A DNA stretch of 32,000 bases, from the NCBI RefSeq assembly GCF_000018105.1, contig NC_009926.1:1-32000 (forward strand), written 5' to 3'. Every line of letters starts with the position of its first letter. Within the stretch, counting starts at the first letter, position 1. Shown here piece by piece: positions 13,126-32,000 of the stretch. This DNA comes from Acaryochloris marina MBIC11017 (GTDB lineage: Bacteria > Cyanobacteriota > Cyanobacteriia > Thermosynechococcales > Thermosynechococcaceae). The notes beneath the pieces are model-generated. The model saw only the letters and a list, made by a program, of their open reading frames with translations. It did no database searches and was not told where the DNA came from. The translations under genes and the position numbers were made by a program.

Positions 13126-13367
13126 AAAAAGCTTGTTAAAGATCAAAAGAGATCTTGCATACGTTGTAGAACTCTTTGCTTATAATTCTCTAGTGTTGCG
13201 AAAGGGTCAGATTAAGAGAATGTAGAGAACATATACTAACTTACAAAAACTTGCGATGATAACCTGTCCATAATCATAAGCAGTATTACCACTAGTTTAC
13301 TTAATTAGTGATAGAAACACTCAAGCTTTGTTTTTCAACTCAGTGTATAAACTGTATTAACCTAAAT

Positions 13368-14546: not shown

Positions 14547-14709
14547 TTAGCTAAGAATTATAAGAATAGATTTTTTAGCATATATTTATCTAACGGGATA
14601 TTTAAAATATTCATATATTTACTCCAATTTTAAATCCTAATAATAACATTCTTAACTGAGAATACTTCAAAAGTTATTTTTCCTTAGTAGAAATATTTCA
14701 GCAACGCTT

Positions 14710-16881
14710 ATGTCTCATAGTTCTATATCATCAGTTTCAACCTCTTTGCCACTACGTCCTAGGGCTCGATTACTGAGAACAATCGGAGATGAGTTAATTA
14801 GTAGCGAAATAGTTGCTGTAATTGAATTAGTAAAAAATGCTTATGATGCCGACGCTACTATTGTTTTAGTTAAATTTATTGAACCTCTTGAGACTGGTAA
14901 AGGATCAATTGAAATTATCGACAATGGTAATGGTATGTCACTCAAGATCATTGAAAAATCTTGGATGGAACCAGCAACTTTTTCAAAGAAAAATACTAAA
15001 TTTAGTAAGATTTATCGTCGTCGATTTTTAGGAGAAAAAGGTGTTGGGAGATTTGCAACATCAAAATTATCTGACTTTTTAGAAATCGTTACGAGGTATA
15101 TAGAGTCAGATAATGAAATACGAGCAATTTTTGATTGGAAGCAATTTGATGATGAAGAAAAATATTTAGATCAAGTAGAAGTTTTATGGGATATGACTAG
15201 CCCTGATGAAATTTGTTCTGAGGGTTCAATTATGATGTTGTATGACTCATGTGAGATTAGAGGTTCGGATGGAATCACGCATGGAACTATTCTACGAATG
15301 TCAGATCTTAGAGCTAATTGGGACAGGGACCAGCTTCTACTTCTTCGAACTGCCTTATCCCGATTAATTTCTCCATTCAGTGATGCGAAAGACTTTCAAG
15401 TCATTTTAGATCTGCCAAAACAATATGAAAATCTTTCTGGTAAAGTAGAGACTCCTAGAGTATTTGAAAAGCCTCCATACCGTATTAATGGAAAGGTAGA
15501 TTCTGAAGGAAATGCCAATCTTATTCTGAATGTTATGGGTAAAGATCCCCAACATATTTCAGAAGTTTTAGGGAAGGATAAAAATATACCTCAATGTGGA
15601 CCATTTGAGGTGGATATTCGAGTGTGGGACTTAGACAGAGATTCATTAAAACTATTAGTAAAAGATCAACAATCTACATTAAAAGATATTCGTAAAGATA
15701 TCAAGGACATAGCAGGAATTAACATTTACAGAGATCAATTTCGTGTGCTTCCATATGGAGAGAGAGACAATGACTGGTTGAGATTGGACATAAGGAGAGT
15801 ACAGGCTCCAACACTTCGCTTATCGAATAATCAGATCGTCGGGTACATACTCATTTCTTCTGACCTAAATCCCGAATTAAGAGATCAAAGTAACCGGGAG
15901 GGGATCGTAGAAAGCCAAGCATTAAGAGATTTACGATTCTTAGTAAGAACTATCCTAGCTAAACTTGAGGCTGAAAGATATAATACTCGTCGACAACAAG
16001 AGCAAGAAACTCCCATTTCTAGCCAAGGAAGCCTCTTTGGAAATTTTAATCTTGATCCGCTTCGGACAGCTCTAACCGAAAAATATGGTAAAGAGAAAGA
16101 TCTCATAGGCATAATTGATAGCCAGGAAAAACAGCTTGAAGAGAGAGTAAAAGTCGTAAAAGAGGTGTTATCTAGATATCAACGCCTTGCTTCACTTGGA
16201 CAATTAATAGATACTATTCTTCACGATGGTCGAGCTCCATTATATAAGATTGATAATGAAGCTACATTACTAATTAAAAATATTGAGAAATCTGATAATA
16301 ATAATTCATTATTTGATAAATTAAAAAAACGAGGCGAATCGATAAAAAAATATTCTTCACTATTAGGAAATCTTTTCAAAAAAATTGAACCTTTTGGAGG
16401 ACGCAAGCGAGGTCGTCCTAAAAAAATAATTCTTGAAGAAGTTATTTCAGATGCATTCATGCTGTTAGAAAGCGATCTAAACAAAGCAAACATTAAAATT
16501 CATATTCCAACAACTAAAACTACAGTTTTTGTCGAGTCTTCTGAGTTACAGCAGGTGATTATGAATCTTGTTGATAACAGTATATATTGGCTTAATAGTG
16601 TTGACGAAGATAAGAGATATATTAATGTATCTATTTCAAATAAGGAAAATCCTTCTGATGGAATTGATATTATATACTCTGATTCTGGTCCAGGTATAGA
16701 AGAAAAATTTAGAGAACATATTTTTGATCCATATTTTTCTACTAAACCTGATGGTGTCGGCCTTGGATTAGCAATTGCTGGGGAGATTTTAACAGAGTTT
16801 TACGAAGGAAGTTTAGAGCTGATAGAGAATACTTCTTCTTCTGGAGTTACATTCCGTATTCATCTAAATAAGAGAGTTTAG
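14710..16881 (+). CDS. dual-GHKL protein: N-terminal MORC/MutL-like ATPase module fused to a HisKA + HATPase_c histidine kinase core
   Basis: N-terminal Bergerat motifs: VIELVKNAYDADA (N-box), IEIIDNGNGM (G1), GEKGVGRFA (G2). C-terminal kinase motifs: H-box LIDTILHDGRAPL (His505, codon 16222-16224), N-box VIMNLVDNSIYW, G1 YSDSGPGI, F-box FDPYFSTK, G2 GVGLGLAIA. No transmembrane segment or classical sensor domain is visible. Confidence 0.8.
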   Translation: MSHSSISSVSTSLPLRPRARLLRTIGDELISSEIVAVIELVKNAYDADATIVLVKFIEPLETGKGSIEIIDNGNGMSLKIIEKSWMEPATFSKKNTKFSKIYRRRFLGEKGVGRFATSKLSDFLEIVTRYIESDNEIRAIFDWKQFDDEEKYLDQVEVLWDMTSPDEICSEGSIMMLYDSCEIRGSDGITHGTILRMSDLRANWDRDQLLLLRTALSRLISPFSDAKDFQVILDLPKQYENLSGKVETPRVFEKPPYRINGKVDSEGNANLILNVMGKDPQHISEVLGKDKNIPQCGPFEVDIRVWDLDRDSLKLLVKDQQSTLKDIRKDIKDIAGINIYRDQFRVLPYGERDNDWLRLDIRRVQAPTLRLSNNQIVGYILISSDLNPELRDQSNREGIVESQALRDLRFLVRTILAKLEAERYNTRRQQEQETPISSQGSLFGNFNLDPLRTALTEKYGKEKDLIGIIDSQEKQLEERVKVVKEVLSRYQRLASLGQLIDTILHDGRAPLYKIDNEATLLIKNIEKSDNNNSLFDKLKKRGESIKKYSSLLGNLFKKIEPFGGRKRGRPKKIILEEVISDAFMLLESDLNKANIKIHIPTTKTTVFVESSELQQVIMNLVDNSIYWLNSVDEDKRYINVSISNKENPSDGIDIIYSDSGPGIEEKFREHIFDPYFSTKPDGVGLGLAIAGEILTEFYEGSLELIENTSSSGVTFRIHLNKRV

Positions 16882-16882
16882 T

Positions 16883-18049
16883 ATGTTTGAAATTACTACT
16901 TGGAGACTACTTATTGTTGATGATGATGAGGAAATATGTAAACAAGTTAAAGAAATATTAGAGGACGAAGAAATTAACAATGTTAGACTTTCTATTATAA
17001 TTACAACCGATTTTAATGATGCACTTGAAATCTTAGAGAATCAACGGATTGATCTCATCATCCTTGATGTTCGCGAAGGTTCACATGATGATAATCCTTC
17101 AGAAGAAATTGGAATAATTACATTAAACAAGATAAAAGAGAAGTGTTTTTTACCTATAATCTTTAATACCGGATTACCAAATCTAGTTGAACACTTAAGA
17201 TCTAACCTTATTCGTATTGTTCGAAAAGGAAAATCTGAAGAGTTATGGAATGAAATCAACAATGTATTTACAAGTAACCTACCAATTATTAATCGAGCAT
17301 TAGTACATCATTTCGAAGAGATACAGCGTCAATATATGTGGGAATTCATAGCTGATAATTGGCAAAGTATTTCTAGAGATAATGATAATCATGAATTAGC
17401 ACATTTATTAGCTCGAAGAATTTCTTTATCTTTATCAGCCGAAGAAATTTTAAGTTGGGTTTCACAACTAGGATTTACAAGTAAGGATTCAATTAAAAAA
17501 GAAGAGGTATCTCAAAGCCACCCTATTACTTATTACTTAATACCTCCTATTTCGAATTATCCACGACCTGGTGATTTATACGTTAAAGATAAAGAGGATA
17601 ATCCTACATATTGGGTTATTCTTAATCCATCTTGTGACTTTATTATTCGCAAGAATGGCAAGTGTAAAGTGGAGTATATCTTACTTGCTAACGCAAGTAA
17701 ATTGTCTGATCAAGAAGAGTATAAAAGCTGGTGTTTAAATTATTCAAACAGTCAAAAGAAAAAATTGATTAAACTAATTCAGGATAATAGAGAAGGTCAG
17801 TCAGAGCGTTTTTATTTTTTACCTGGTGTATGTGATTTTCCCGATTTAATTGTCGATTTCCAAGTTGTTGTTAGTATTAAGTATGATGATTTATCCAATG
17901 GAGCTTATAATCGGCTTGCTTCACTCGATAGTCCTCATGCTGAAGCCTTACTTACTAGATTCTCTCGGTACTTTGGCAGAGTAGGAAAACCTGACTTAGA
18001 TGCCGAAAGTATTCTATCTAAACTGCAGGAGGTTATCAGCAAGGATTAA
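16883..18049 (+). CDS. response-regulator receiver (REC) domain protein with an unknown ~260-aa C-terminal output domain
   Basis: REC signatures: LLIVDDDEE acidic pocket, DLIILD (Asp62, codon 17066-17068), IIFNTG, VRKGK. The start codon lies 1 nt after the kinase stop (TAG-t-ATG). The C-terminal domain (..PGDLYVKD..WVILNPSCDF..RFYFLPG..LIVDFQ..ASLDSPHAEALLTRFSRYFGRVGKPDL) matches nothing I can name. Confidence 0.8.
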   Translation: MFEITTWRLLIVDDDEEICKQVKEILEDEEINNVRLSIIITTDFNDALEILENQRIDLIILDVREGSHDDNPSEEIGIITLNKIKEKCFLPIIFNTGLPNLVEHLRSNLIRIVRKGKSEELWNEINNVFTSNLPIINRALVHHFEEIQRQYMWEFIADNWQSISRDNDNHELAHLLARRISLSLSAEEILSWVSQLGFTSKDSIKKEEVSQSHPITYYLIPPISNYPRPGDLYVKDKEDNPTYWVILNPSCDFIIRKNGKCKVEYILLANASKLSDQEEYKSWCLNYSNSQKKKLIKLIQDNREGQSERFYFLPGVCDFPDLIVDFQVVVSIKYDDLSNGAYNRLASLDSPHAEALLTRFSRYFGRVGKPDLDAESILSKLQEVISKD

Positions 18050-19429: not shown

Positions 19430-22400
19430 TTAGTACAAGAAATTTGCAGGATTTAGTCTTTGACCAGAAGGGTCTCGGATCTCAAAATGTAAATGTGGTC
19501 CTGTTGTTCTACCGCTGTTACCAGAGAGGGCAATCACTTGGCCTTGCTTAACAGGATCACCTATTTGCACATTTGTAGCTGATAAATGCCCATAAACCGT
19601 AACATAACCGCTACTGTGCTGAATAAACACAAAATTGCCGTACCCTCCGCCACATCTAGACTCCAAGTGACCCTGCTGAGGACAATCTACTTTAACAGCA
19701 GTGACGACACCTCCATCTGATGCCCTAATTTCAGATCCTATCGGTGTACCGTAATCAATACCTCTGTGGAATCCTAATGATCGCGGACCATAGGGCGAAG
19801 TTATAGGATACTCAGTTGGTAAGTCAAACTGTCCAGTGGTTATCCCATCTCCCTGAACAAACGGCCCTAATTGACCATTAAGGTTACTCGCGATCGCACC
19901 AGGCGAACCCGGCACCCCAGCCACCTGTGAAGGCTTACAGGGCACCCCAGCCGAAGCCACCGTAGCAGGCGCATTGGTCGAAGCATCTCCAGTTGACCCA
20001 TACTTCTCAAAATTGGCTGGATTACTCCACACCTCACTTTCTTCAGGTCCACCGGGCAGCGAGGTCCATTGCCAAGGACTCAGCACCCTGTCTGCCAGGG
20101 CAAAGTTCCCTCGCTGAATCGCACCGATTAGATCAACATTCTTCTCAGCCCCAATGATTTTGATCCACTCCACCGCTGCTTGAGCCGCAACCGCCCGATC
20201 CCGTGTCCAGCCATCCAGCCCCGTTCGTTGCAGAAGGGACTGCCTAGACTCTGGTGTAAATTGATAAATTCCATAAGCACCTGTCTTAGGATTGGGCCTC
20301 CAATTCGTCCCATCCGTGCTTTCTCCAATTCTGATTCGGGCTAGATATTGCCTCAGATTATGGTCAGGATCGGCGGGGGCTGAATGGGTTGATGAGCCCT
20401 GACTTTGGCTATTGCTAGCGCTATTATTAAAGGTTGCCGCTGCTTGATCCGTACCCACATACCGCCAATGCCACGGCTCATAGCTCACCCCTTGGCTATT
20501 CCCCTTAGGAAACGACAGCTCAAACCCATACTTCCCCGCATTCTGCTGCATCCAGGCATATTCAGGAGTGTTAGCCCAAGATTCATTCAGGTAGGGATTC
20601 GCATTATTTCCTACATCCACGGCTAACCCCGTATGGTGCTCACTGTGGCCTGCGGGTGCTGATATCTTCGCTGCTGCTTCTGGAGAACCTTGCTCAGCGA
20701 CCTGGTCCGAGAACAACTCTTCTTGCAGCTTTCTATCCCGAAAGCCTGATACCGCCTTGATATCCAATCCTTGAGCCGCTGCATCAGCCCGCATTTGCTC
20801 AAAGGCTGACGCTGCATCTTGAGTCAGGCCAACTGTAGCCCCATCCACCGCAGTCACTTCATAAAGCTGTTCATCGGTTTCCTCATAGGGAAGATGCCCA
20901 TACTTAGTATTTGCGGCTCCCGCATCACTCTGGCCCGCTGTCGCAATAATCTGGTCGGGGTCGCAGTACACCCCAGCAGCCAAAGTTTGATTTCTCAAAC
21001 GTGCAAGACTAGCAGGCAAGTTCCGCCGACTCGCGACGAGGAACAGCCCATCTTCTTTGACAACATACGGTGTTGGAATCACCAGAAAGTGAGGTGTACA
21101 TTGCTGGCCGAGCAAGGGAATCATGACGCAGAACTGAAAGGCGACACTGAGCTTAGCCGTACTCTTTTGGTCGGGATACTCCGTGATTTTCTTGAGGACA
21201 AACTTGGTATGGCTATTCACCCCAAACGGATGAATCCCCGCAGGTTCCCAGCCTCCATTCACCCACTTCAGCAGTCCTTTTCCTCCTTTAACCCCTTGGC
21301 CATTCTTGCCCCCTGAGTCTCCTTGCACCCATTGTTTCCCTTCGATATCGTCATCCCCCGTCGCTTGGGCTACTGGAGAGCTGATAAACTTCCGCATCTC
21401 AAAATGGGGGCAGTTATCCGCTCTTTGGTTTTGGGTCTGGCCGAGGGTGCATTTGATGGGTCTAAACTTTTGGTTTTCACTGCCACCGGATAGCGAATGT
21501 TGGATGGAAGGCTCCTCTGGCCCCTCAACTCCGCTATAGGCAATATCAAACCTCGCGAATAAGTCCCCCGCAAAAAAGCTAAAGGCTAGGTCAAAAGGGA
21601 GCTTATCAATCGGAATCTCTGAGAGGCCAGGAACAGAGTTGATGGTCTTGTCCTTCGCTCCAGGTATCTCTTCAATCGCCATGTCCGCAATCTTAGGTAG
21701 GGTCTGCTCAATGGGCTGATTGACCAGATCGGGGACGGCACCCAAGGGCAAATTCTTTAGTTCAGGCACGGCCTTGATCACTTCCTTGACAGCAACATCT
21801 GTTCCTTTTGCCAAGATATAAGCTTGTGCCCGTTTCCTCACCTGTTGCCAGTTACCATTTATCGCATCACCGACGAGAGGGACAACCTGATTAACGGGCA
21901 GTTTCTTGAGGGTGGGGCCAATCTTCTTACCAATCCCCGCTAGCTGAATCTGCTCAGCCTTGGAGATGACCCCCTGCCAATTACCCCGTGCTAGGTCTTG
22001 AAGCGGAATCCCTTTAAAAGCGGGTATCTTGCTGAGTCTAGTAATCAGCACTTTCTCTCCTGTAGTCAGGGCGGCTTGCTGGAGCTGTTTACCTGCTTGA
22101 GAAGGGTCATACAATACCCCTAAAGCTGCTTGGATGGCCGGGGCGGCATCATCAACGGTGATTTTCTCGCCATTGTTGATCTTGGTGTAGAGTTTATCGA
22201 TTTCATCAACCGTCAGGCCATAAACGAGGGGCACATCGCCAATGGGTAATCCTGCAATATCCGTCCCCTGTTTAGCTGAAATATCTCGTAAGGTCAGTTT
22301 GGTGAAGGATGCCGTGACGGGATTTTGCTGTAAGTCTCCAAACTTGAGGATTTGATCAGGAGTCGCCCCTTGAGGCCATGCCCGATCTACTTGGTAAGGA

Positions 22401-22636
22401 AGCTGCACTCCATTGGGTAAGGGTGGGATTTCGACATAGCCAGCTTGCTCAGCCGTCGTTAGTTGTCGAAACGTAGGGGACGGTCCAGGATCGGGATCAT
22501 AGTAAAGTCCCGGTAAGTTGACGGGGGTATCTGGGCTAAGTGCTGCCGTCTGTTGCTGCTGTTGAGCTAGAGCAGGGGCTATCTGCGTCAAAGTCGGTAG
22601 ACCAGCCAGGGCCATAGCTATGAGTTTCTTTTTCAT
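19430..22636 (-). CDS. large secreted multi-domain peptidoglycan hydrolase (M15/VanY-like + lysozyme/transglycosylase-like + M23)
   Basis: Signal peptide MKKKLIAMALAGLPTLTQIAPALAQ (ATG 22636). VanY/M15 motifs: SGFRD..SEHHTGLAVDV..YEPWHWRY. Lysozyme-like motif: IGESTDG...GAYGIYQFT. M23 motifs: HRGIDYG...GPHLHFEI. The N-terminal ~600 aa are unassigned. Confidence 0.85.
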   Translation of the reverse strand: MKKKLIAMALAGLPTLTQIAPALAQQQQQTAALSPDTPVNLPGLYYDPDPGPSPTFRQLTTAEQAGYVEIPPLPNGVQLPYQVDRAWPQGATPDQILKFGDLQQNPVTASFTKLTLRDISAKQGTDIAGLPIGDVPLVYGLTVDEIDKLYTKINNGEKITVDDAAPAIQAALGVLYDPSQAGKQLQQAALTTGEKVLITRLSKIPAFKGIPLQDLARGNWQGVISKAEQIQLAGIGKKIGPTLKKLPVNQVVPLVGDAINGNWQQVRKRAQAYILAKGTDVAVKEVIKAVPELKNLPLGAVPDLVNQPIEQTLPKIADMAIEEIPGAKDKTINSVPGLSEIPIDKLPFDLAFSFFAGDLFARFDIAYSGVEGPEEPSIQHSLSGGSENQKFRPIKCTLGQTQNQRADNCPHFEMRKFISSPVAQATGDDDIEGKQWVQGDSGGKNGQGVKGGKGLLKWVNGGWEPAGIHPFGVNSHTKFVLKKITEYPDQKSTAKLSVAFQFCVMIPLLGQQCTPHFLVIPTPYVVKEDGLFLVASRRNLPASLARLRNQTLAAGVYCDPDQIIATAGQSDAGAANTKYGHLPYEETDEQLYEVTAVDGATVGLTQDAASAFEQMRADAAAQGLDIKAVSGFRDRKLQEELFSDQVAEQGSPEAAAKISAPAGHSEHHTGLAVDVGNNANPYLNESWANTPEYAWMQQNAGKYGFELSFPKGNSQGVSYEPWHWRYVGTDQAAATFNNSASNSQSQGSSTHSAPADPDHNLRQYLARIRIGESTDGTNWRPNPKTGAYGIYQFTPESRQSLLQRTGLDGWTRDRAVAAQAAVEWIKIIGAEKNVDLIGAIQRGNFALADRVLSPWQWTSLPGGPEESEVWSNPANFEKYGSTGDASTNAPATVASAGVPCKPSQVAGVPGSPGAIASNLNGQLGPFVQGDGITTGQFDLPTEYPITSPYGPRSLGFHRGIDYGTPIGSEIRASDGGVVTAVKVDCPQQGHLESRCGGGYGNFVFIQHSSGYVTVYGHLSATNVQIGDPVKQGQVIALSGNSGRTTGPHLHFEIRDPSGQRLNPANFLY

Positions 22637-22676
22637 GGGGAAATGCTGTGGTGCGATAAAGGAATGTACCGCCAGC

Positions 22677-22714
22677 AAAAACGGCCCCGATCTGAGCTAT
22701 TAACTGAAGTGTTC
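22677..22714 (+). repeat. 38-bp direct repeat, copy A (left of NACHT gene)
   Basis: AAAAACGGCCCCGATCTGAGCTATTAACTGAAGTGTTC matches copy B at 25430-25467 at 33 of 38 positions. Confidence 0.7.
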
Positions 22715-22918: not shown

Positions 22919-25456
22919 GTGATTTCTTGGCTAAACAACTGGCATACAACGCCTTGGCTCTGGTTGCTTGCAAACACCACAGCAAAAGGAAAAGATGACT
23001 CAAGAATCAAGCAGATCCTAGATTTTCTCAACAACATTCCGATGATCGGCTGGGGAATTGCTGGGTTCGCGTTGGTGGCAATGGCAACAGCAGCGATCGC
23101 TAAGTGGACAGGCAACCTTGAAAAAATCATCGTATTTTCTCAAAAATATCTCTTTCGCAAAACACCAGAGATTATCGAAGCAAAAAGACAAAAAGCCCGA
23201 CAAAAGCTGATTAAAGTTTTACTTGGGCAAGTTGTTAAACGCTTGGAAAACTCTTTACATCACAAAATCCCTATTGATTTGAGGCATGAGGAGCAACCAC
23301 AACGGGTTGGACAACGGAATTTACCAACTGTTCAAGACGAAGAAGTCTCTGAGAATTTCATCAATCGAACATTCAATCCCTTCACGGAAAACGCTCTACA
23401 CGAGGCTGAAAGCACCCAGAAATCTACTCAAAAACTCTTAGAACGGGAGGACATTCAGGGACGTTTATTGATTTTGGGAGAACCGGGGTCTGGAAAGACA
23501 AATGAACTGTTAGTTCTAGCTAGGGACTTACTGATAAAAGCACAGCAATCTCCAGATAAACCAATCCCAGTAATCTTTGAGCTATCTGAATGGAATGACA
23601 ACCAGGAGCTTGATGAATGGCTTGCTCAGCAATTATTTGAAAAGCACAAAATCCCATTAGATGTTTCTAAACACTGGATGAGACAAAAACAGCTGCTTCC
23701 TCTATTGGATGGCCTGGACGAGCTTAGCAAAATAGAAGGGAGTGAAGAAGTTTCATCAAAAGAACTTGACCAAGGTCAAATCAAAGAACTGATTCAATGT
23801 GTAAGGGAAATCAATACCTTTATTAGTATTTTCTCTTTACCTCTTGTTGTGTGTTGTCGGCGCAAAGAATATGAAGCACTCGAAGCACAAGGTGAATCTC
23901 TCAAGTGTTTGAACGGAGCTATAGATTTACAACCTCTCAGTGATAAGCAGATTAAAGAATATCTTCAGAAATTAAAGCGGGAATCTTTATGGGAAGTACT
24001 TCAAAGCCAGCCTGAACTTCCGGAATTTATCCGTTCACCATTGTTTCTACTTATTTTGGCGGTTGTATATAAAGGGGAACACATTAGCAGTGAAGAAGAA
24101 TTGCTTGACGAATACATAACTAAACAACTAAATTCGGCCAGCAAAAAGGCTTACCAAAAAAGAATTCGTTCCAAGTTGCGGCCGAGTAAATTCTATATAA
24201 AAAAACTTGGTAAAGAACCTGCTCCAGAGAAAACTCATTATTACCTGAGCTGGTTAGCAAGCAAACTGGATTTTGAAGGAAAAACTGAGTTCCTAATCGA
24301 ACAAATTCAACCTACATTGTTAGATACTGCAAAGGCTCGAAAACATTATCGTTGGATTTCTGGGCTGATGTATGGAGTGATTATAAGTTTGTGTTTTGGG
24401 TTGATAGGAGGGTGGTGGATCGGTCTAGTATTCGGTTTAATTGGGGGACTAAGTATTGTACTGAGTGAAAATAAAAAGCCAAAGAAGTATAGATTCTCAT
24501 GGAAAGGATTCTGGGAAGCAGGACTGATTTATGGGTTAATTATTGGGTTTCTTAAAGATCTTAATCTTGGTTTGTGTTTTGGACTGAGTGGAGGACTGAG
24601 TAGAGGACTGAGTAGAGGACTAGGTGACAGCCAAAAACCTGAAAAGCTGAGATTATTCTGGAAAAGCTTTTGGAGGGCAGGAGTAATTTTTGGACTAATT
24701 TTTGGACTCAGTGGAAGTCTGCGTAGAGGACTTGCTGGAGGGATTATTGGAGGGCTTAGTGAAGGGCTTATAGAAGGACTGAGTAGAGGACTGAGTAACA
24801 TCAAAACATCAGAAAAGTTCAGCTTTTCATGGAAAAGTTTTTGGAGAGTAGGGTTTAGTATTGGACTGACTATTGCGATTATTGGAGGGCTTAGTGAGGG
24901 GCTTACAGAAGGACTGAGTAGAGGCGTCTTGATTGCATTAACTGGAGGGTCAAGTATTGGGTTTATCGCTGGGCTGATTGAAGGAATAGAAAATTCTGAT
25001 ATTGATGTTCAGGATAAAACAACTCCTAATCAAGGAATTAAAACTTCTATCAGAAATGGGATAATTGTTGCAATAGTATTTGGACTGTGTGCTGGGCTAA
25101 TTGGTGGACTGAGTGAAGGACTAGTTTTCGTGTTGGCTAGTGGGTCGAGTAGGGGGATATTTGTTAGGATGGCTGTTGGGTTGAATGTCGGACTGATTGC
25201 TGGACTGATTGCTGGACTGATTGCTGGGATAGACGCAGTCTTTAAACACTTTTTCTTGCGTATAGTCCTCTACCAATCTGGAGTTGCCCCCTGGAACTAC
25301 GCAAGATTCCTCGAACATGCCGAAAACCATCGATTCATCCAGCGAGTAGGTGGCCGCTACCGCTTTGTCCATGACCTGCTAAGAAAAAGGTTCACGGCAA
25401 CTTTGAATGAGGAGAAAAATAAAGAAAAAAAAAACGGCCCAGATCGGAGCCGTTAA
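22919..25456 (+). CDS. NACHT-family P-loop NTPase with a C-terminal glycine-zipper transmembrane repeat region
   Basis: Walker A LILGEPGSGKTNEL, Walker B LLPLLDGLDEL, and a short N-terminal TM helix (MIGWGIAGFALVAMATAAIA). The C-terminal ~330 aa are repeats of basic-W-motif plus GL-rich helices. The track start is GTG 22919; an alternative ATG is at 23042. Confidence 0.8.
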   Translation: MISWLNNWHTTPWLWLLANTTAKGKDDSRIKQILDFLNNIPMIGWGIAGFALVAMATAAIAKWTGNLEKIIVFSQKYLFRKTPEIIEAKRQKARQKLIKVLLGQVVKRLENSLHHKIPIDLRHEEQPQRVGQRNLPTVQDEEVSENFINRTFNPFTENALHEAESTQKSTQKLLEREDIQGRLLILGEPGSGKTNELLVLARDLLIKAQQSPDKPIPVIFELSEWNDNQELDEWLAQQLFEKHKIPLDVSKHWMRQKQLLPLLDGLDELSKIEGSEEVSSKELDQGQIKELIQCVREINTFISIFSLPLVVCCRRKEYEALEAQGESLKCLNGAIDLQPLSDKQIKEYLQKLKRESLWEVLQSQPELPEFIRSPLFLLILAVVYKGEHISSEEELLDEYITKQLNSASKKAYQKRIRSKLRPSKFYIKKLGKEPAPEKTHYYLSWLASKLDFEGKTEFLIEQIQPTLLDTAKARKHYRWISGLMYGVIISLCFGLIGGWWIGLVFGLIGGLSIVLSENKKPKKYRFSWKGFWEAGLIYGLIIGFLKDLNLGLCFGLSGGLSRGLSRGLGDSQKPEKLRLFWKSFWRAGVIFGLIFGLSGSLRRGLAGGIIGGLSEGLIEGLSRGLSNIKTSEKFSFSWKSFWRVGFSIGLTIAIIGGLSEGLTEGLSRGVLIALTGGSSIGFIAGLIEGIENSDIDVQDKTTPNQGIKTSIRNGIIVAIVFGLCAGLIGGLSEGLVFVLASGSSRGIFVRMAVGLNVGLIAGLIAGLIAGIDAVFKHFFLRIVLYQSGVAPWNYARFLEHAENHRFIQRVGGRYRFVHDLLRKRFTATLNEEKNKEKKNGPDRSR
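24340..25240 (+). repeat. intragenic tandem repeats (~165-170 bp units, plus 15-bp and 12-bp micro-repeats)
   Basis: Unit starts lie near 24470 (KKYRFSWKGFWEAG), 24631 (EKLRLFWKSFWRAG) and 24800 (EKFSFSWKSFWRVG). GGACTGATTGCT occurs 3 times at ~25190-25230 and GGACTGAGTAGA 2 times at ~24591-24614. Confidence 0.8.
25425..25454 (-). terminator. strong intrinsic terminator for the minus-strand T4SS operon, embedded in the NACHT 3' end
   Basis: Minus strand reads AACGGC-uccgaucugg-GCCGUU followed by ten U (A-run at 25425-25434). It lies 36 nt downstream of the small ORF stop at 25490. Confidence 0.6.
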
Positions 25457-25489: not shown

Positions 25490-25600
25490 TTATTTCAAGA
25501 GCAAGATCCAAGCGATTATCCCCAAGATCCAGCCAATGGGACCTGCGAGGAGCAGGAACGGTGTGAGGACGATCAGGAGGATGACAAGACAACCTTTCAT
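25490..25600 (-). CDS. 36-aa hydrophobic membrane peptide, translationally coupled to the upstream gene
   Basis: MKGCLVILLIVLTPFLLLAGPIGWILGIIAWILLLK*. Its ATG overlaps the upstream stop (TGATG). Below the ORF-track cut-off. Confidence 0.45.
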   Translation of the reverse strand: MKGCLVILLIVLTPFLLLAGPIGWILGIIAWILLLK

Positions 25601-27051
25601 CAAACACCCTCCACAAAGTAAATTTCTACTTCCTTATCAAAGTGATAGAGGCCACTGCGAGAACCACTAGAACGATTGGGAGCAAAGCTATTCACGAGAG
25701 ACGAGGCTCTATCTCCCACACTGCTTGAACGGAGCTGGTCAAAGCCCACATTGAGGCCCGCCCTGAGCAGCTTGTTGCCAAAACCTTCTCCTTGACCTTT
25801 GAGCTTGGCTTGCAGATAGGGAGACTGCTTGTATTGGACAACCGCAACAGGCGTCTTTCTGCTTTCTGGTGACTCATCCGTCAGATTGACATGCTCAATG
25901 GGCTGTTGGTTGACTTCCACCACTTGCATACTCAAAAAGTCACCCTCCGCACTGGTCACTTCTGCCAAGACTTTGGAGCCTTTCTTCGCCATTGCCCCTA
26001 AGTCTTCACTCAGGGTCAACAGATACCGCTGACCGATGATCGCGTCACTGTTCTGGGGTATCCAGGTAATCGGATTGTCGAGCTTCGCCTTGGCTGTCGT
26101 ACCAGGGGAAATCAGTCCCTTTCCGAGTGGACTACTGCTAGCGGGGTAGAGGGCAGTGGGTGCATCGGATACCTGATTATCCTCCAGCAAATCACCCGTC
26201 AAAGAAGCCACCAGTATTCCTTGGGGTGGAGGGGCTTTGGCAACAGGTTTTGTGGTAATCGGTTTACGGACGGGGTGAGAGGTGGATACCTTGATGGGAC
26301 GAATGGGCTTGGGTTGAATGGGTCGAGCAGGCTGCACGGGCTTCGGAGTAAAGGCCGACTGCTGGGCAAGGCTGAAGTTAGCAGCAGGCTTGGGGGCTTG
26401 AGCGACGGGTCGGGGGGCTGGGGGTCTAGCCGCAACAGGCTGAGGCTTGGGAGCAGGTCTATTGCGATAAACGATCCGAGGTCGAGACGGGGGTACAGAC
26501 CGACGTACCTGGATGGGTCGGGTCACCCGATGGGCTGCACTGGGCGGTCTGCGGTGGGACTGGGCTGGCTTCGTCTTCGGCACCACTATCGGCTTCTGGG
26601 GGACTGCTGTGAGCTTGTTCTGGCCCGGAGCATCCGTCACATTTCCCGTTTCATACTTCTGCTTTAGCTCAGAAATTTGGACGGCTTGACTCTTGATAAT
26701 GGCATCCTTATCATCCTCAGCCATCCCAATCGAGGGCTGGGGCCTGGTGGCAACCGCTGGCTTGGGAGTATCACTGTTCCCCGATGTCACGGCTTGAACC
26801 ACCGCCAGAATTAGAAAGATACTCCCTCCAATTACCCCAATCTGGATGGGTAACCGTCGTCTTGTCTTGGTCGGTGTCTGGGCATCAAACTCATGGGTCA
26901 GTTCCGGTAAATGGAAGTCTTGCAGGGTGGCGGGTACAGGTTCTTGGGGTTGTGCCTGTGCTGGGTCAGGCTTGGTATCCTTGACACCCGCCTTGGGCTT
27001 ATTCTTGTTAATCGCAGCTAGGGCTTCTTTTTTGGTCTTGATATCAGACAT
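25600..27051 (-). CDS. VirB10/TrbI-like T4SS protein (N-terminal TM, long Pro-rich linker, C-terminal beta domain)
   Basis: The architecture matches VirB10: a cytoplasmic N-terminus, TM LPIQIGVIGGSIFLILAVVQAV, about 150 aa of Pro-rich repeats (PKP/RP), then a globular C-terminus. Its operon position after the VirB8-like gene also fits. No decisive motif. Confidence 0.45.
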   Translation of the reverse strand: MSDIKTKKEALAAINKNKPKAGVKDTKPDPAQAQPQEPVPATLQDFHLPELTHEFDAQTPTKTRRRLPIQIGVIGGSIFLILAVVQAVTSGNSDTPKPAVATRPQPSIGMAEDDKDAIIKSQAVQISELKQKYETGNVTDAPGQNKLTAVPQKPIVVPKTKPAQSHRRPPSAAHRVTRPIQVRRSVPPSRPRIVYRNRPAPKPQPVAARPPAPRPVAQAPKPAANFSLAQQSAFTPKPVQPARPIQPKPIRPIKVSTSHPVRKPITTKPVAKAPPPQGILVASLTGDLLEDNQVSDAPTALYPASSSPLGKGLISPGTTAKAKLDNPITWIPQNSDAIIGQRYLLTLSEDLGAMAKKGSKVLAEVTSAEGDFLSMQVVEVNQQPIEHVNLTDESPESRKTPVAVVQYKQSPYLQAKLKGQGEGFGNKLLRAGLNVGFDQLRSSSVGDRASSLVNSFAPNRSSGSRSGLYHFDKEVEIYFVEGV

Positions 27052-27053
27052 GA

Positions 27054-27773
27054 CTAAAAATCCTCCATTGATGTAATCATCAGGCCGTGACGCTGGTACT
27101 TGGTGATCAGGTGGTTGAGTTGGCTATAGGAGTCCCCAAACAGTCGCTGAGCTTCCCCTTCCGTGGGAATCACAGCCTCAACCACGAGCTTTTTATTCAA
27201 TTTCTCCGGGAAGGATTTACCGTCCTTAGACCGATGGGTACGGATGGAAATCACATGGATCTGCCACTGACCCGGTTTGATCTGGGTGAGATGGATATCC
27301 GTATCCCGCTTAATCTCAACGACGCTCTGCCATTGACCCGACAGGTATTCTTGGATCGGTTGCTGAGCTTTCTCATATTTCTGATGCTCAATCTCTAGCC
27401 AGCCATCCCGGAGCAGGGGGTCGATGGACTGGGCTACGGCAAACAGCTCCCCTGGATAAATGTGGTCGTTATGCTTCTTGGGAGGACTGCCCCCATTCCA
27501 GGTCCAACCCACTTTGACGAGTTCATAGGCATAGGTTCTCAGGAGCGCGTCCTCCCGGTGCAAGGGGTCCACTTTTTCAGCCTGGACGGTCTCATCGTCC
27601 TGGGTCTGGACGTAGATGGTGGATTGGTCTGATGCGAGTTGGGCACTGCGGGAGCTGGAGAGGAATGCTCCACAGCTTGAAAAGAAGTTGAGGGTGAACA
27701 CCCCCAAAATGGCATACAGCACATAGGGGGGCTGTTTCTTGTGGGTTTCGCTTGGGTATTGGAGTTTTAGCAT
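27054..27773 (-). CDS. bitopic membrane protein in the VirB8/TrbF-like position
   Basis: 239 aa with a single N-terminal TM (YVLYAILGVFTLNFFSS) and a globular periplasmic part. Size, topology and gene order resemble VirB8. The stop is adjacent to the next start. Confidence 0.35.
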   Translation of the reverse strand: MLKLQYPSETHKKQPPYVLYAILGVFTLNFFSSCGAFLSSSRSAQLASDQSTIYVQTQDDETVQAEKVDPLHREDALLRTYAYELVKVGWTWNGGSPPKKHNDHIYPGELFAVAQSIDPLLRDGWLEIEHQKYEKAQQPIQEYLSGQWQSVVEIKRDTDIHLTQIKPGQWQIHVISIRTHRSKDGKSFPEKLNKKLVVEAVIPTEGEAQRLFGDSYSQLNHLITKYQRHGLMITSMEDF

Positions 27774-27786
27774 GGGTCTGATATCT

Positions 27787-29172
27787 CTATCGATTTCTCA
27801 AGGCTCTGGAGGTGACGGCTGAACTCGCGGATAAGGCAGCGGAAGACACAACGGTCACTGCTGCTCCCACGGTGGTCACCACAGCTCCCGTATAGACCCC
27901 TGATGCAGCTAATGCCCCCACCGTCACCGCAGCCGTGGCGACCGCAGGGGCGATATAGCCTAAGAAGGTGGCAAAGGCGGCTCCTTGATCCGCGATGGGG
28001 TTATCCGTTAGATAGATCGCCCCAAATCCAATCACGAAGATATAGGCGAATCGCACAAGGGCAATAATGACCAGGGCTTTCTGGTACTGCAAAACCGCCC
28101 ACTTATGACCCGCAATCGGTAGGGTGGAATAGATGATCATGATCGGGGCTAAGATCCCTGACAGAATCAAGGCCAGTTCTTGGCCGGAGACAAACCAGTA
28201 TTGGATCTGGAGAGGACCTTCGATAGAGACGGTCCGAACCGCATTCTCTTTAACCACGTTGAAGCCATGTATGGCATCATCAATGGGGTTCAAGGTGTTA
28301 AATATCGCGGCACTAATGCGGCCTAGATCGGCTTGAATCCCTTTTTTACGACTTTCAATCACTTCCAGAGCCGTCTCACAGCTCGGGCAGTCTTTCTTGA
28401 TGGCAGCCTCATCCCGTTCCAGCTTTTGGGCCAACAACTCCAAGCAGCGCACGGCGGTTTGCACTTTCGGGGCTTGAACCTGGTCCAGTCCTTGACTGGA
28501 GGACGCGGCTGCGGGGTCTCTGAGGGTGATTGCCGGCAGACGAGAACAGCTCGCAGACTGACGGTTATATTCGGCTATCGCTGAGGACGCATGAATCTTG
28601 TCCTTGAGGGCATCCCGGACCACTAGCCCCGCCCACTGGGAATCGAGGATCAGGTCGCTCCCTCGATTGGCCACCTCCCGAAAACTCCAGGCAACGACTT
28701 TCGCCCCCCAGCCATAGTTGAGGGTAAAGGCGAGGAGTAAGACGATGGGAACGATCTGCTGCAAGACAATCCGATGGGTTTCCCCACTCAAAAAGCTCAT
28801 CCCCGCTCTCGCCATCAGCACGAGGCAGGCCACGAGCAAAAAGGGCAGCAGGATGCTAAACATCGCCTTGTTATTGACGGTCGTCCGGGGGTTATCTCCG
28901 AGGATGTCCTCCCACAAGGCATCCCACCATTGGGAGGTCTCAAACATGCGGATCTTGGACTCCCGCAGCAGGTCTACACCCACGGAAGGGTCGAGGTCCT
29001 CATTAATGGCATGGGCTGACACTTCACCCAAGGCGATAAACAGTAGGGTGAGACCGATGACGGACACTATCGTTCTAGGGAGCGGCCTCTGAATATAAGC
29101 CAGGAATGTAGAGGTAGTTGAAGCTAAGCTGCTCCCGCAGAGCGGCCTGGTCTTGGGCGCGGTGTCGTTCAT
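27787..29172 (-). CDS. polytopic inner-membrane T4SS protein (VirB6/TrbL-like)
   Basis: 461 aa with at least 6 predicted TM helices and a Gly/Ala/Val/Thr-rich C-terminal tail. It follows the VirB5/TrbJ-like gene. The annotated start overlaps that gene by 98 nt, so the true start is uncertain. Confidence 0.5.
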   Translation of the reverse strand: MNDTAPKTRPLCGSSLASTTSTFLAYIQRPLPRTIVSVIGLTLLFIALGEVSAHAINEDLDPSVGVDLLRESKIRMFETSQWWDALWEDILGDNPRTTVNNKAMFSILLPFLLVACLVLMARAGMSFLSGETHRIVLQQIVPIVLLLAFTLNYGWGAKVVAWSFREVANRGSDLILDSQWAGLVVRDALKDKIHASSAIAEYNRQSASCSRLPAITLRDPAAASSSQGLDQVQAPKVQTAVRCLELLAQKLERDEAAIKKDCPSCETALEVIESRKKGIQADLGRISAAIFNTLNPIDDAIHGFNVVKENAVRTVSIEGPLQIQYWFVSGQELALILSGILAPIMIIYSTLPIAGHKWAVLQYQKALVIIALVRFAYIFVIGFGAIYLTDNPIADQGAAFATFLGYIAPAVATAAVTVGALAASGVYTGAVVTTVGAAVTVVSSAALSASSAVTSRALRNR

Positions 29173-30226
29173 CTTTGTATAGCTCCAGTTCAGCTCGGAT
29201 TTGTTCTTGGAGAGTGAGTTCTGAGGCGCTTAGGTGCAGCCCCGTCGTGCGCTGCTGATGGGCAAGGGCAGAGCCAACCACGAGGGCATCTGAAGACTTC
29301 TTCTGCTCCTCTTGACCCGATACGACGTTGCTCAGTATGGCTCCATTGGTTGCGGTTCCTTGAGCCATCAGGCTGTTTTGAGCGGTGAGGGACTTGAGGA
29401 CTGCTTGGGAGGACTTCAGGGTTTGGGCTTTCTGGCCCGTCTCCCCAACAGAGGTCGCAATCCCAGCCCCCGCTGTGGCTTGCTCTTTGCTAGCGGCACT
29501 GAGCTGCACGAGGGCTTGAGTGGACTCAATGGTGTTAACCACGGACTGCTGCACTTGCTCTCCCTGCTGCTGAATCAAGGCTTGACCATCCTCAGAGAAG
29601 ACGAGCTGAGTCATCAGTTGGGGGAGTAAGGCTTTACGGGCCTCGTTGTTGCGGGCTTGGGTATACACCTGAAAGGGGTCTTGGGGATCTGAATAAATGG
29701 GGTCCTCAGATCCACTGCCTCCTTGCTGGCTTTCGCTGGTGCCATTGGTGCCCAATTTGTCGTACTCAGAGAGGACGGTAGAGATGGACCCGCTTAGGAT
29801 CCGCTTCAGGGAGAAGTTATCGATTGCGTCATATATGGCTCGGCCTACCTTGTAGGCATCAAGCGCTTTCTGTCCATATTCATAGACCTTGAGAATCTTG
29901 CGTTGGGTCTCATTGATCACCCTCGCTTGTCCAGGTTTCTGCTTGGGTCCAAGGACATTAAAGACCGTGCCGAGGAGACCACTAGGGAGCTGAGCCGTGG
30001 GCACTTCCGTATAGGTAGACGTATCTAGAGGATTATCCTTGGCTATCGTCACATCCCCCGTGGGGATGGGAACATCAGGGAAGGTGGTGGGTGTAGTGGT
30101 GGTCGGTAAGGTGATATCGGTGCTAATCACGGGGTCGTCGTAGGACACCTGAGCATAGGCGGGGACGGTGGTGATGGTAGCTTGAACTGACAGAACCAGA
30201 GTTATCAGTAAAGGTTTAGGCTGCAT
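29075..30226 (-). CDS. secreted Gln/Ala/Ser-rich coiled protein (VirB5/TrbJ-like position)
   Basis: Signal peptide MQPKPLLITLVLSVQATITTVPAYAQ from ATG 30226, followed by long helical Q/A/S-rich segments. It lies immediately after VirB4, overlapping its stop by 11 nt. Confidence 0.45.
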   Translation of the reverse strand: MQPKPLLITLVLSVQATITTVPAYAQVSYDDPVISTDITLPTTTTPTTFPDVPIPTGDVTIAKDNPLDTSTYTEVPTAQLPSGLLGTVFNVLGPKQKPGQARVINETQRKILKVYEYGQKALDAYKVGRAIYDAIDNFSLKRILSGSISTVLSEYDKLGTNGTSESQQGGSGSEDPIYSDPQDPFQVYTQARNNEARKALLPQLMTQLVFSEDGQALIQQQGEQVQQSVVNTIESTQALVQLSAASKEQATAGAGIATSVGETGQKAQTLKSSQAVLKSLTAQNSLMAQGTATNGAILSNVVSGQEEQKKSSDALVVGSALAHQQRTTGLHLSASELTLQEQIRAELELYKDERHRAQDQAALREQLSFNYLYIPGLYSEAAP

Positions 30227-32000
30227 AGTCTTCCACTCCAATGGTTTCAACCTCAATCCCTTGTTTGTTGGCCTGGGAGAGCTGATCGCCAAAGTCCACT
30301 AATCCGGCTACGGGGTCATCAGGATAGCGAGACATCACCCGGTTGCGGGCTTTGGTTTGCTCCCCTTGGTTGGCACCGACTCCCAAGGTGAAGTTGCTGG
30401 GGTTATGGGTGACGATCAGTTGCCGAGACCCTCGCTGCCAGCACCAATGGGACTGCTGGAGGGACTTGGAGGCGCGAAAGGATTCATGCTCAAATTTCTC
30501 AAGGATCTTGGACTGGATCCCAAATTCTGAGACCAATAGCTTACGGGCATATTCATTGACGTGACTGACAAATTTGTTCTGGAGGTTGGAGATGACCTTG
30601 GATGCACAGCTTGAATCCAGTAGGGTTTTTACCTCTGTCATTCCAATCAGGATGTTGCACTGCCATTTACGGCCTGAGTTGGCGAGAGACCCCACCATCT
30701 CTGCAAAGATGGTACGGGTTAATAGCTCTGACCCTTCATCAACCGGTAACAGGGTCCGCTTGCCGTTCATGGCTTTGCGGATCAGCAAGTCAAACCCCGC
30801 CACCCCATAGACGAGGGAGTCACTGTCGTTGTCCACGTTGGTCAGTCCCAAGATCAGGGCATCCACGTTGGCGTCAAAGGAGCTGATGCCATTGATAGAA
30901 TCTCCTAATGCCGTGGGGATGACGCCCTCTAATAGGAGCTGTAGGTGCTCAAAGGTTCGCTGTAAGTCGGGACCACAGTCGTTCACTTGGATATACTGCT
31001 TCAGCCAGACTTTGGCAAAGGCGACAAACTCCTCATAAATGGGCATCTGTGCCGCTTCATCGGAACCGAAAGGCGCATTTGACGCGAGGGTGTAGCGCTC
31101 AAGGTGGGCCTCGTGAAAGGATTCAAAGCATAAGCCCAAAGCCCGCTCAATCAGGAGGTTCTCCATCGGGTTAGACTGGCCCGCATCCCCCATCGCAATC
31201 GCTTTAAGGATCCTCAACTTGTTGCGCTTGATAAATTTCCACGCTTCCTCACGGGTGGGCTGTTGGGAGTCATAGCCCGGATCACCCGGTTTGGGCAGAT
31301 CATCAATCCAGGAGACATCGGGAATCTCCATGACGTTGATGGTGGCTTTGTCTACGGGTTTGTAATTGGAGGACACCCCTAATTGCTCTTGGGTTGCCAT
31401 ATAAGGTTCATAGCTGGATTTACCCGTGGGGGGCGGGAAGTCAAACCCCACGACGTTCATCCCTTCCCGCTGGCAATAGCTCGTCATCTCCAGCATCAGC
31501 ATGGTTTTACCTGCCCCCGTTTCCCCCGTGACGAGGGTGTGATTCGGGAAGGTATGGGCTAGATCGAGGTAAAAGGAAATCGGAAGGTCATAACCTATGA
31601 GCAACACCCCCCGACAATCCATCGGGGCGGGATGGATTTGGGGCAGGGTGGGCAGCACTCTCGGGGACATGGTTTTATACAGGTGATTCCCCCCGCCCGG
31701 TAAGGTGAGCATGGGGGCGGCACTGATGGCGAGGCTCGTACACCAGTGATGCTCAAATTTCTGGGTAATCTTGACGGCTTTGGTCCCCTCTAGCTTTTGG
31801 GCTAAGGCGTCCAGGTCAAGGTTGAGTTGGTCTACGGAATCCCGATAGAGGAAGATGGCGAAGGCGACCCAAAAGGGACGATTGCCGTTGTTCATCCACT
31901 CTAGGTTTTTCTTCGTTTCTTCAAGGCGTTCTAAGGCAATGGGGTTCAGTTCTTTACGCTGGGCGGCATCCCCCATTTTGCGGATAGAGTTCCGCCCCGT
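30216..32000 (-). CDS. VirB4/TrbE-family T4SS ATPase (5' end probably beyond the window)
   Basis: Walker A LVTGETGAGKTMLM and Walker B-like LLPVDEGSELL. The frame remains open upstream of the first Met to the window edge, and VirB4 proteins are usually about 800 aa. Confidence 0.7.
   Translation of the reverse strand, partial: TGRNSIRKMGDAAQRKELNPIALERLEETKKNLEWMNNGNRPFWVAFAIFLYRDSVDQLNLDLDALAQKLEGTKAVKITQKFEHHWCTSLAISAAPMLTLPGGGNHLYKTMSPRVLPTLPQIHPAPMDCRGVLLIGYDLPISFYLDLAHTFPNHTLVTGETGAGKTMLMLEMTSYCQREGMNVVGFDFPPPTGKSSYEPYMATQEQLGVSSNYKPVDKATINVMEIPDVSWIDDLPKPGDPGYDSQQPTREEAWKFIKRNKLRILKAIAMGDAGQSNPMENLLIERALGLCFESFHEAHLERYTLASNAPFGSDEAAQMPIYEEFVAFAKVWLKQYIQVNDCGPDLQRTFEHLQLLLEGVIPTALGDSINGISSFDANVDALILGLTNVDNDSDSLVYGVAGFDLLIRKAMNGKRTLLPVDEGSELLTRTIFAEMVGSLANSGRKWQCNILIGMTEVKTLLDSSCASKVISNLQNKFVSHVNEYARKLLVSEFGIQSKILEKFEHESFRASKSLQQSHWCWQRGSRQLIVTHNPSNFTLGVGANQGEQTKARNRVMSRYPDDPVAGLVDFGDQLSQANKQGIEVETIGVEDYAA

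Follow-up and report, generated by a model that had tools for sequence, protein, structure and literature searches.

NLR-type switches are central to the innate immunity of animals, plants, fungi and bacteria, and to our knowledge every one that has been studied mechanistically is soluble. In resting NLRs, as in NLRC4, Apaf-1 and the plant MHD motif, the winged-helix domain (WHD) is packed against the nucleotide-binding domain (NBD), and one of its histidines touches the bound ADP. Here we describe a gene of the cyanobacterium Acaryochloris marina MBIC11017 that encodes a NACHT protein in which the WHD is predicted to harbor a membrane-embedded array. The gene is an intact open reading frame (ORF) of 845 amino acids (aa) at 22919-25456 (+), listed with a GTG start, and lies in the first 32,000 nucleotides (nt) of contig NC_009926.1, the stretch of DNA that was analyzed as a whole and is referred to below as the window.

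Animal NLR modules (NLRC4, 4KXF; NOD2, 5IRM and 5IRN; NLRP3) have the same order of NBD, helical domain 1 (HD1) and WHD as the A. marina protein, and the same conserved WHD histidine. They differ from it in being soluble, with LRR sensors, CARD or PYD effectors and no membrane insert in the WHD, and their sequence identity to it is 12-17%. Closer to it are the bacterial NACHT proteins treated in a preprint by Kibby et al. In that preprint, the NACHT signature is given as D[GAS]hDE in Walker B, the NLR grammar is described as a constant sensor combined with a variable effector, and one sensor category ('TM regions', for transmembrane; category 4) is predicted to sense intramembrane or periplasmic signals. 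The protein described here has several TM helices within its NACHT module, shares a conserved tail and a PNQGI loop with its relatives, and belongs to a group that, like the 'TM regions' NACHTs of Kibby et al., is enriched in cyanobacteria and other multicellular bacteria and carries variable N-terminal effectors. Particular to it is a unit that was triplicated in its own lineage and bears charged GLSEGL helices. Because the TM-region architecture had already been noticed by Kibby et al., the gene does not represent a new class and is a further member of a large, mostly cyanobacterial, already noticed family, with an unusually expanded membrane block. The text of the preprint, exclusive of its Table S2 with 27 tested proteins, holds no experiment on the TM-inserted NACHT family, and within the portions of the literature examined we found no account of where in the WHD the insert begins, of hairpin units built on glycine zippers, of conserved EKLSFS and PNQGI loops or of differences in the number of units. 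Nor did we find literature joining NACHT with glycine zippers. A further parallel is offered by KAP NTPases, which, according to the title of Aravind et al. (2004, Genome Biol 5:R30), cited in PMC8195603, carry a TM insert inside the P-loop domain itself; both are P-loop NTPases with TM helices inserted in a cytoplasmic module, but in the A. marina protein the insert is in the WHD of a NACHT module.

The NACHT core and the interrupted winged-helix domain

The protein is a bona fide NACHT NTPase and, judged from its motifs and its modelled fold, an intact NLR-type STAND switch. The NACHT core (aa 183-354; 23465-23980, +) is supported by Pfam PF05729 (37.3 bits, with a gathering cut-off of 26.7), by residue invariance in an alignment of 103 sequences (A2; a smaller alignment, A1, holds 12) and by Foldseek. 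In A2, G187, G192 and K193 of the Walker A motif GEPGSGKT (aa 187-194, nt 23477-23500) are invariant, as are D264, G265, L266 and D267 of the Walker B motif DGLDE (aa 264-268, nt 23708-23722), with E268 nearly so; the sensor-1 residue, R314, is invariant or nearly so. The core is followed by HD1 (aa 355-435; 23981-24223, +), recognized from the A2 alignment and a profile match to NLRC4, with an SPLFL motif in which P374 is invariant. Foldseek searches with the AF2 models of this protein and of a typical homolog (P0001) matched NLRC4, NOD2 and NLRP3 over about 300-350 residues at E values of 1e-7 to 1e-5 (NOD2 5irm, 1.7e-6, and NLRC4 4kxf, 1e-5, for the former; NLRC4, 1.4e-7, for the latter). 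The family A2 profile also reaches NLRC4 by sequence in the PDB, over the HD1 stretch (E 3.8e-4); a PDB search with the single sequence returned RFC P-loop noise only. The initial annotation had called the protein a NACHT NTPase from its letters, and the Pfam score, Walker motifs and fold matches bear this out. Nucleotide-dependent oligomerization and NTP hydrolysis would be expected of such a protein.

Where the insert lies and which motifs are present rule out an assignment to the KAP family instead of NACHT. It would draw on a superficial likeness, that of a P-loop NTPase with inserted TM helices, and it conflicts with the fold match to NLRs and with the presence of the DGLDE signature. The stretch from Walker A to Walker B (aa 194-264) contains nothing hydrophobic, and Pfam gives NACHT and no KAP_NTPase.

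Upstream of the core, a TM helix at aa 40-64 (23036-23110, +) is indicated by hydropathy (best 19-residue Kyte-Doolittle (KD) score 1.90) and by an AF2 helix at 41-64, and is kept in close homologs; the single N-terminal TM helix proposed in the initial annotation thus stands. In relatives, a kinase, CHAT or TIR domain takes up this position. Between helix and core is a conserved helical linker (aa 65-182; 23111-23464, +) that includes the motif VVKRLExSLHxKIxIDL; it is seen in both alignments, where R108, S112 and L113 are nearly invariant, and in AF2 helices at 87-129.

As modelled and as aligned with relatives, the Gly-rich hydrophobic block that follows (aa ~471-786) is an insertion of about 310 aa inside the WHD, not a C-terminal appendage. 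Three observations carry this reading: the layout of the AF2 model, the comparison with NACHT proteins that have no TM helices, and the position of extra domains in relatives. Modelled with the family alignment, the whole protein reached a pLDDT of 80 and a pTM of 0.75, and HD1 is followed in order by a helix at 436-453, a short strand, the long helices of aa 471-786, and then a helix, a beta-hairpin and a helix. Since the same layout recurs in the model of P0001 (pLDDT 88.8), where three confident hairpins (pLDDT about 90) have short strands at their bases, the WHD appears to be interrupted between its second and third helices. The first half (aa 436-470, THYYLSWLASKL...TEFLIEQIQP; 24224-24328, +), with the AF2 helix 436-453, the short strand and turns, corresponds to LILQHLALFFQD... 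in a TM-less NACHT protein of Nostoc. The second half (aa 787-838; 25277-25432, +) contains the motif VGGRYRFVHDLLRKRF and is modelled at a pLDDT of about 90 as a helix (794-803), two strands forming the beta-hairpin wing (807-810 and 813-816) and a final helix (819-838). This tail is 93% identical to that of the syntenic ortholog in A. marina S15 (WP_212666652.1, plasmid unnamed8, L001 9056-11281) and is near-invariant in the family around GGRYRFVHD, with G811, F816 and the histidine H818 (nt 25370-25372) invariant or nearly so in the 103 sequences.

Two TM-less NACHT proteins from cyanobacterial plasmids (Nostoc sp. HK-01 BBD63447.1, a NACHT+HEAT protein, and A. marina S15 WP_212667020.1; loci L010 and L008) match the family hidden Markov model (HMM) over the NACHT-HD1 part at an E value of about 1e-29. 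HMM positions 665-685 of the tail (GGRYrFiHdlLrkhFa) match GERYQFAHLTLQEFFAA and GEGYQFTHLTLQEFFAA in these proteins, so that the TM-less motif G-E-R-Y-Q-F-A-H-L-T-L-Q-E-F-F-A-A aligns with G-G-R-Y-R-F-V-H-D-L-L-R-K-R-F-T-A here. In the TM-less proteins, however, the tail motif comes about 100 aa past HD1 with nothing hydrophobic between, the two WHD halves are contiguous, and soluble repeats follow (HEAT in L010). Another candidate for this comparison, a supposedly canonical NACHT protein at L006 14573-16166, ends before its WHD, and L010 and L008 were used instead. In relatives of the A. marina protein with additional C-terminal domains (WD40, pentapeptide, peptidase S26), these come after the tail and not after the TM block. 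The repetitive glycine-zipper block of the initial annotation is therefore real, but its C-terminal position is not, given the conserved 50-aa soluble segment that follows it. The related proposal that the block replaces a C-terminal sensor fails as well, since the block is a WHD insertion that is kept in members with WD40 or pentapeptide repeats; that this particular protein has no soluble repeat sensor was correct. Thousands of bacterial NACHT proteins appear to place a polytopic membrane array in this way inside the WHD, the domain of the ADP-contacting histidine.

The hairpin array and its expanded units

The array (aa 471-786; 24329-25276, +) is delimited by hydropathy, the distribution of Lys and Arg, AF2 helices and its absence from TM-less NACHT proteins. 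Five hydrophobic units were defined by motif and MAFFT alignment: u0 (24347-24478), u1 (24479-24640), u2 (24641-24811), u3 (24812-25018) and u4 (25019-25276), all on the + strand. Residues 481-790 consist of 19% Gly, 14.5% Leu and 12% Ile, and the pattern G-h-x-x-G-h-x-x-G has 18 overlapping matches in the protein. Transmembrane glycine zippers (GxxxGxxxG) are reportedly a feature of channel-forming proteins, as described by Kim et al. in 2005. The A. marina protein shares GxxxGxxxG in hydrophobic helices with these channel formers, a likeness at the level of the motif only, and no homology between the two was found. Two matches elsewhere were set aside as compositional, one of the TM region to H+-pyrophosphatases in the profile PDB search (H+-PPase, E 0.002) and one to Pfam Tim17 below the cut-off (E 0.052).

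Hydropathy segments were found at 478-518, 534-555, 640-662, 668-690, 709-743 and 745-785. The maximum 19-residue KD score is strong in u0 (2.19), u3 (1.88) and u4 (2.31), borderline in u1 (1.63) and, in u2 (1.34), under the usual threshold of 1.6. The second helix of u2 is amphipathic (hydrophobic moment, muH, 0.37); in this helix (606-624), E, E and R are spaced i, i+4, i+8. Each inter-unit loop holds 3-6 Lys and Arg, versus 0-2 in each intra-unit turn. By the positive-inside rule, this distribution points to in-out-in hairpins, with the NACHT core, the WHD tail and both kinds of conserved loop (EKLSFS-type and PNQGI) on the cytoplasmic side, and the sequence fits an arrangement in which little is exposed on the outer face. 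The PNQGI loop itself (aa 703-707; 25025-25039, +), between hairpins u3 and u4, was recognized in A1, A2 and a survey of inserts. N704 and I707 are invariant in A1, N704, Q705 and G706 are conserved at >=90% in A2, and the loop is single copy in 142 of 173 inserts.

The initial annotation placed a W-motif in at least four units, which overstates the number. We count three copies of the motif W-K-x-F-W, which lie at aa 528, 581 and 638, and the first and last of the five hydrophobic units, u0 and u4, are without it. The unit that carries it (EK-x-S-F-S-W..F.R followed by GL helices) is present in one copy in the nearest homologs and in the 741-aa S15 ortholog and in three copies here. The extra copies of the EK-x-x-F-S-W-K-x-F-W unit with its GL helices, u1 and u2 (24479-24811, +), are gapped in the nearest homologs and in S15, where 95 residues are missing from the alignment, and are modelled by AF2 with a pLDDT of 40-70. 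On these comparisons of sequence, the five units, versus a typical three, are the result of a lineage-specific triplication of one hairpin unit long ago. Identity to the S15 ortholog is 74% in the N-terminus, 66% in NBD-HD1 and 56% in the insert, and the S15 helices are purely hydrophobic (GLIFGLIGGL); the charged GLSEGLxEGLSRGL stretches occur only in the MBIC11017 protein. Across the family, the distance from Walker A to the tail spans 383-825 aa (median 503); at 624, the protein is exceeded by 17 of 172 members. In a metagenomic homolog of 997 aa (P0126), four tandem copies were found of a ~100-aa unit with the otherwise single-copy loop PNQGIW.SA.NGL. Because a different unit was multiplied there independently, duplication of hairpin units seems to be a trait of the family. 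The protein is thus a compact member with neither an enzymatic effector nor a soluble sensor and has a close ortholog that differs from it by two hairpin units, and the pair offers a convenient natural experiment on whether the array is input, output or both.

At the DNA level the units, put at about 165 bp in the initial annotation, measure 162, 171 and 177 bp. Their pairwise identity is only 55-64%, which argues for an old duplication and not for a currently unstable array, and a BLAST search of the glycine-rich block against itself gave no off-diagonal high-scoring segment pair at E<=1e-3. Proneness to expansion and contraction, also suggested at the outset, is weakly supported, since there are just two near-perfect arrays of about three 12-bp copies. 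Tandem Repeats Finder places both in frame: GGACTGAGTAGA x3.4, encoding GLSR repeats (24581-24621, +; 96% matches), and GGACTGATTGCT x3.2, encoding GLIA repeats (25190-25227, +; 100% matches). Their period is 12 bp, and the 15-bp repeat in three copies that had been described was not found by that program. Opposite the GL-repeat coding region is a 91-aa antisense ORF rich in SPLLSP (24529-24804, -), which seems to be no gene but a pattern that the repeat codons create mechanically on the other strand.

A mostly cyanobacterial family and its possible role

The homolog search gave 694 matches at E<=1e-3 among the candidates scored, and among the 120 matches listed nearly all are 600-850-aa 'NACHT domain-containing proteins' of cyanobacteria. 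Their shared layout is a variable N-terminus, usually with one TM helix, a NACHT core, a Gly/Leu-rich block of variable length and a tail of about 50 aa with the consensus PWNYARFLxHAxxHRFIQRVGGRYRFxHDLLR. Insert and tail together matched 2,914 clusters at 50% identity (E<=1e-10), drawn mostly from cyanobacteria and Chloroflexota, and the occurrence of the block in other NACHT proteins, raised in the initial annotation, is thereby established for some 2,900 clusters with this layout. GTDB species genomes contain at least 253 loci. The same two groups account for most of these, and one case each was seen in Acidobacteriota, Nitrosomonas, Calditrichaceae and a Methanocrinis archaeon. The last of these (L039), from the methanogen Candidatus Methanocrinis alkalitolerans, is 32% identical over aa 74-827, which suggests inter-domain transfer or assembly contamination. 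In the alignment-based scan of GTDB species genomes no locus exceeded 46% identity, and a scan of genome contigs with query-specific peptides detected no relative. Same-strand tandem pairs of family paralogs occur in Mastigocoleus testarum (L032 4638-8893) and in a marine cyanobacterial metagenome-assembled genome (L068 4062-9332). Some homologs bear JGI names (DNA polymerase III delta prime subunit, F0F1-type ATP synthase assembly protein I, energy-coupling factor transporter) that are likely spurious matches to the P-loop or TM helices.

Family members carry N-terminal fusions to Ser/Thr kinase, CHAT, TIR_2, Trypsin_2 and BTAD domains, and some have C-terminal WD40 or pentapeptide repeats with the membrane block still present. 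Genes next to or upstream of some loci encode Trypco2 (L009), EAD1-CHAT, HEPN, Abi_alpha, caspase-STAND or a further NACHT protein. On plasmid p057_M of Nostoc sp. C057 (L009 1125-4755), a Trypco2 gene immediately precedes the gene of a 1067-aa family protein with CHAT, NACHT and the TM insert, an arrangement that connects the family with a defence-associated domain. The relatives thus sit with conflict-type domains and do not appear as unrelated housekeeping membrane proteins, the outcome that the initial annotation had named as one that would count against its proposal. A Pfam survey of the genes nearest to 80 loci, 135 in all, showed no dominant family (Uma2 7, TPR 6, SH3_3 5, CHAT 4); because no conserved partner emerges, the protein looks like a single-gene system. 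The largest neighbour cluster (12 of 80 loci) was dismissed as a conserved partner, since single linkage had joined pentapeptide proteins and CHAT proteins in it.

We hypothesize that the protein is an NLR-type NACHT switch built into the cytoplasmic membrane, a single-gene conflict module with the array as input and the N-terminal TM module as output, and give this reading about an even chance of being correct. The module would act against phages or other mobile elements. The hairpin array would tether the WHD to the bilayer, serving as input and as autoinhibitory element, and its position next to the WHD histidine could couple the state of the membrane to freeing of the WHD. Either an altered membrane or a ligand within it would shift the WHD off the nucleotide-binding domain, allowing exchange of ADP for ATP and oligomerization. 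The N-terminal TM-helix module (aa 1-150), in the effector slot filled by kinase, CHAT, TIR or BTAD domains in relatives, would be clustered by oligomerization, perhaps along with the GLSEGL helices, which are amphipathic and charged, and membrane damage, cell arrest or death (abortive infection) could follow. We favor the array as anchor and input and the N-terminal module as output because the array is constant and the N-terminal domains vary, as in NLR grammar. By this analogy, the constancy of the array favors a role as input or anchor at least as much as one as effector. The CHAT, TIR_2, Trypsin_2 and Pkinase fusions and the defence-type neighbours support the proposal, as do the gene's position as cargo (see below) and the sensing function that Kibby et al. 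predict for TM regions. Several points weigh against it. Every functional step is one that we infer for the TM-inserted NACHT family, and some homologs lie among housekeeping genes. Fusions to BTAD and kinase domains are compatible with ordinary signal transduction as well. In members with WD40 repeats past the WHD, these would be a conventional sensor, so that the array would not be needed as one. The periplasmic turns, of 0-10 residues, leave little surface for an external ligand. Finally, the PADLOC and NCBIfam models of antiphage NACHT and STAND proteins (EruA, HyoA, IetA, mad8) gave no match above threshold to the protein; EruA scored 18.1 bits (cut-off 1000) and HyoA 16.5 bits (cut-off 1200), and the partial matches of IetA (aa 123-204, E 0.002), PDC-M54A (aa 170-205) and mad8 (aa 182-227, E 0.0084) are at the level of the P-loop only.

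An opposite assignment of roles, put forward in the initial annotation and in our view possible but doubtful, makes the array itself the effector. Here the amphipathic charged GxxxG helices of oligomerized protein would form a depolarizing pore, with sensing in the cytoplasmic loops or the NACHT module. Enzymatic effectors and soluble sensors are missing from this protein and from the relatives closest to it, the helix at 606-624 has the amphipathicity and charge spacing described above, and the glycine-zipper pattern is matched 18 times. Three homologs with C-terminal WD40 repeats and nothing but TM segments in the N-terminus (P0112, L047, L051) would then be complete sets of sensor, switch and effector. 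However, it is the array that is constant and the enzymatic N-terminal domains (kinase, CHAT, TIR, trypsin) that vary, and two effectors in one protein would be less parsimonious. The charged GLSEGL helices are found in this protein alone, the syntenic ortholog having hydrophobic GLIFGL helices, and hypervariable length (383-825 aa) is more typical of sensor repeat arrays.

A bolder extension of the input role, which we regard as improbable, is that the array is the membrane counterpart of LRR, WD40 and TPR arrays. It would then perform repeat-type pattern recognition within the membrane, evolving by hairpin duplication and wired into the ADP-sensing WHD, and could read the insertion of foreign membrane proteins such as phage holins, injection channels or an incoming type IV secretion system (T4SS). 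The unit numbers that bear on this are the three W-motif units of the A. marina protein and the four PNQGI units of P0126.

The family might also be a membrane-signalling STAND without any part in conflict, that is, a housekeeping sensor of the state of the membrane or envelope. This is suggested by the fusions to BTAD, a transcription activator domain, and to Ser/Thr kinases, by the lack of a significant PADLOC match and by a homolog (P0010) that lies among metabolic and ribosomal genes. The patchy, multi-copy, plasmid-borne distribution, the variable slot occupied by the gene (see below), its GC content below that of its flanks and the CHAT, TIR, Trypco2, EAD1, HEPN and Abi contexts all speak against it, and a family missing from most genomes is a poor fit to a housekeeping gene. 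We consider this explanation unlikely, though it deserves more weight than the assignment to conjugation discussed below.

Plasmid setting and other elements in the window

The complete ORF at 22919-25456 (+) is supported by the ORF list, by the match to the S15 N-terminus and by a shift in GC content. The syntenic S15 ORF likewise begins with GTG and shares the N-terminal ~60 residues (MIAGLNDWNTMSWLWLLAD...IPMIGWGIAGFAV), which makes the GTG start credible. The RefSeq start of the S15 protein (9356) appears to be about 100 codons too late; the GTG at 9056 gives 741 aa and restores the conserved N-terminal TM helix. A scan for promoters and terminators yielded no more sites than in shuffled sequence.

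The gene sits between a gene for a cell-wall hydrolase with VanY and M23 domains (19430-22678, -) and T4SS-like genes, in a plasmid of Acaryochloris type. Together, 19430-22678 (-) and 25600-31976 (-) form a conjugation-type cluster with 77-83% DNA identity to Acaryochloris plasmids; it encodes the 1082-aa VanY and M23 hydrolase, a weak VirB4/HerA-like ATPase and four proteins without a family match. The NACHT gene is on the opposite strand from the T4SS-like genes, and its GC content is 0.40 versus 0.49-0.57 in the flanks. The gap between the hydrolase gene and a 483-aa gene is a variable slot: it is occupied by the NACHT ortholog in S15 unnamed8 and by a pentapeptide gene in S15 unnamed10, and pMB01 has no NACHT gene there. 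From the strand, the GC content and the variable occupancy of the slot, we infer that the NACHT gene is cargo in a conjugation gene cluster of an Acaryochloris-like plasmid and not part of the secretion machinery.

That it is instead a working part of the neighbouring conjugation apparatus, for example in entry exclusion or as a gating ATPase, seems very improbable. Its position beside the VanY/M23 gene and the T4SS-like genes, including the weak VirB4-like ATPase, would be consistent with such a role, as would the occupation of the same position in S15 plasmid unnamed8 and the location of another homolog near a MobF relaxase. Against this are the opposite strand and a GC content 10-15 points lower, the absence of a NACHT gene from the otherwise conserved clusters of pMB01 and unnamed10, and the absence of any T4SS family among the 25 commonest Pfams in the survey of 135 genes next to the 80 genomic homologs.

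Two other elements occur in the first half or middle of the window. At 13308-18049 (+) lies an island of low GC content (0.32-0.36) with three co-directional genes, which encode a C5 cytosine methyltransferase, a 723-aa protein in which an N-terminal GHKL domain similar to BbrUII/HgiDII restriction enzymes is fused to a histidine-kinase module, and a 388-aa protein with an N-terminal receiver domain only. This island looks like a restriction-modification-like module wired to a phosphorelay. An IS21-family transposase of 578 aa is encoded at 8739-11034 (-; E 2e-70), and a 280-aa ORF that overlaps it may be the IstB helper.

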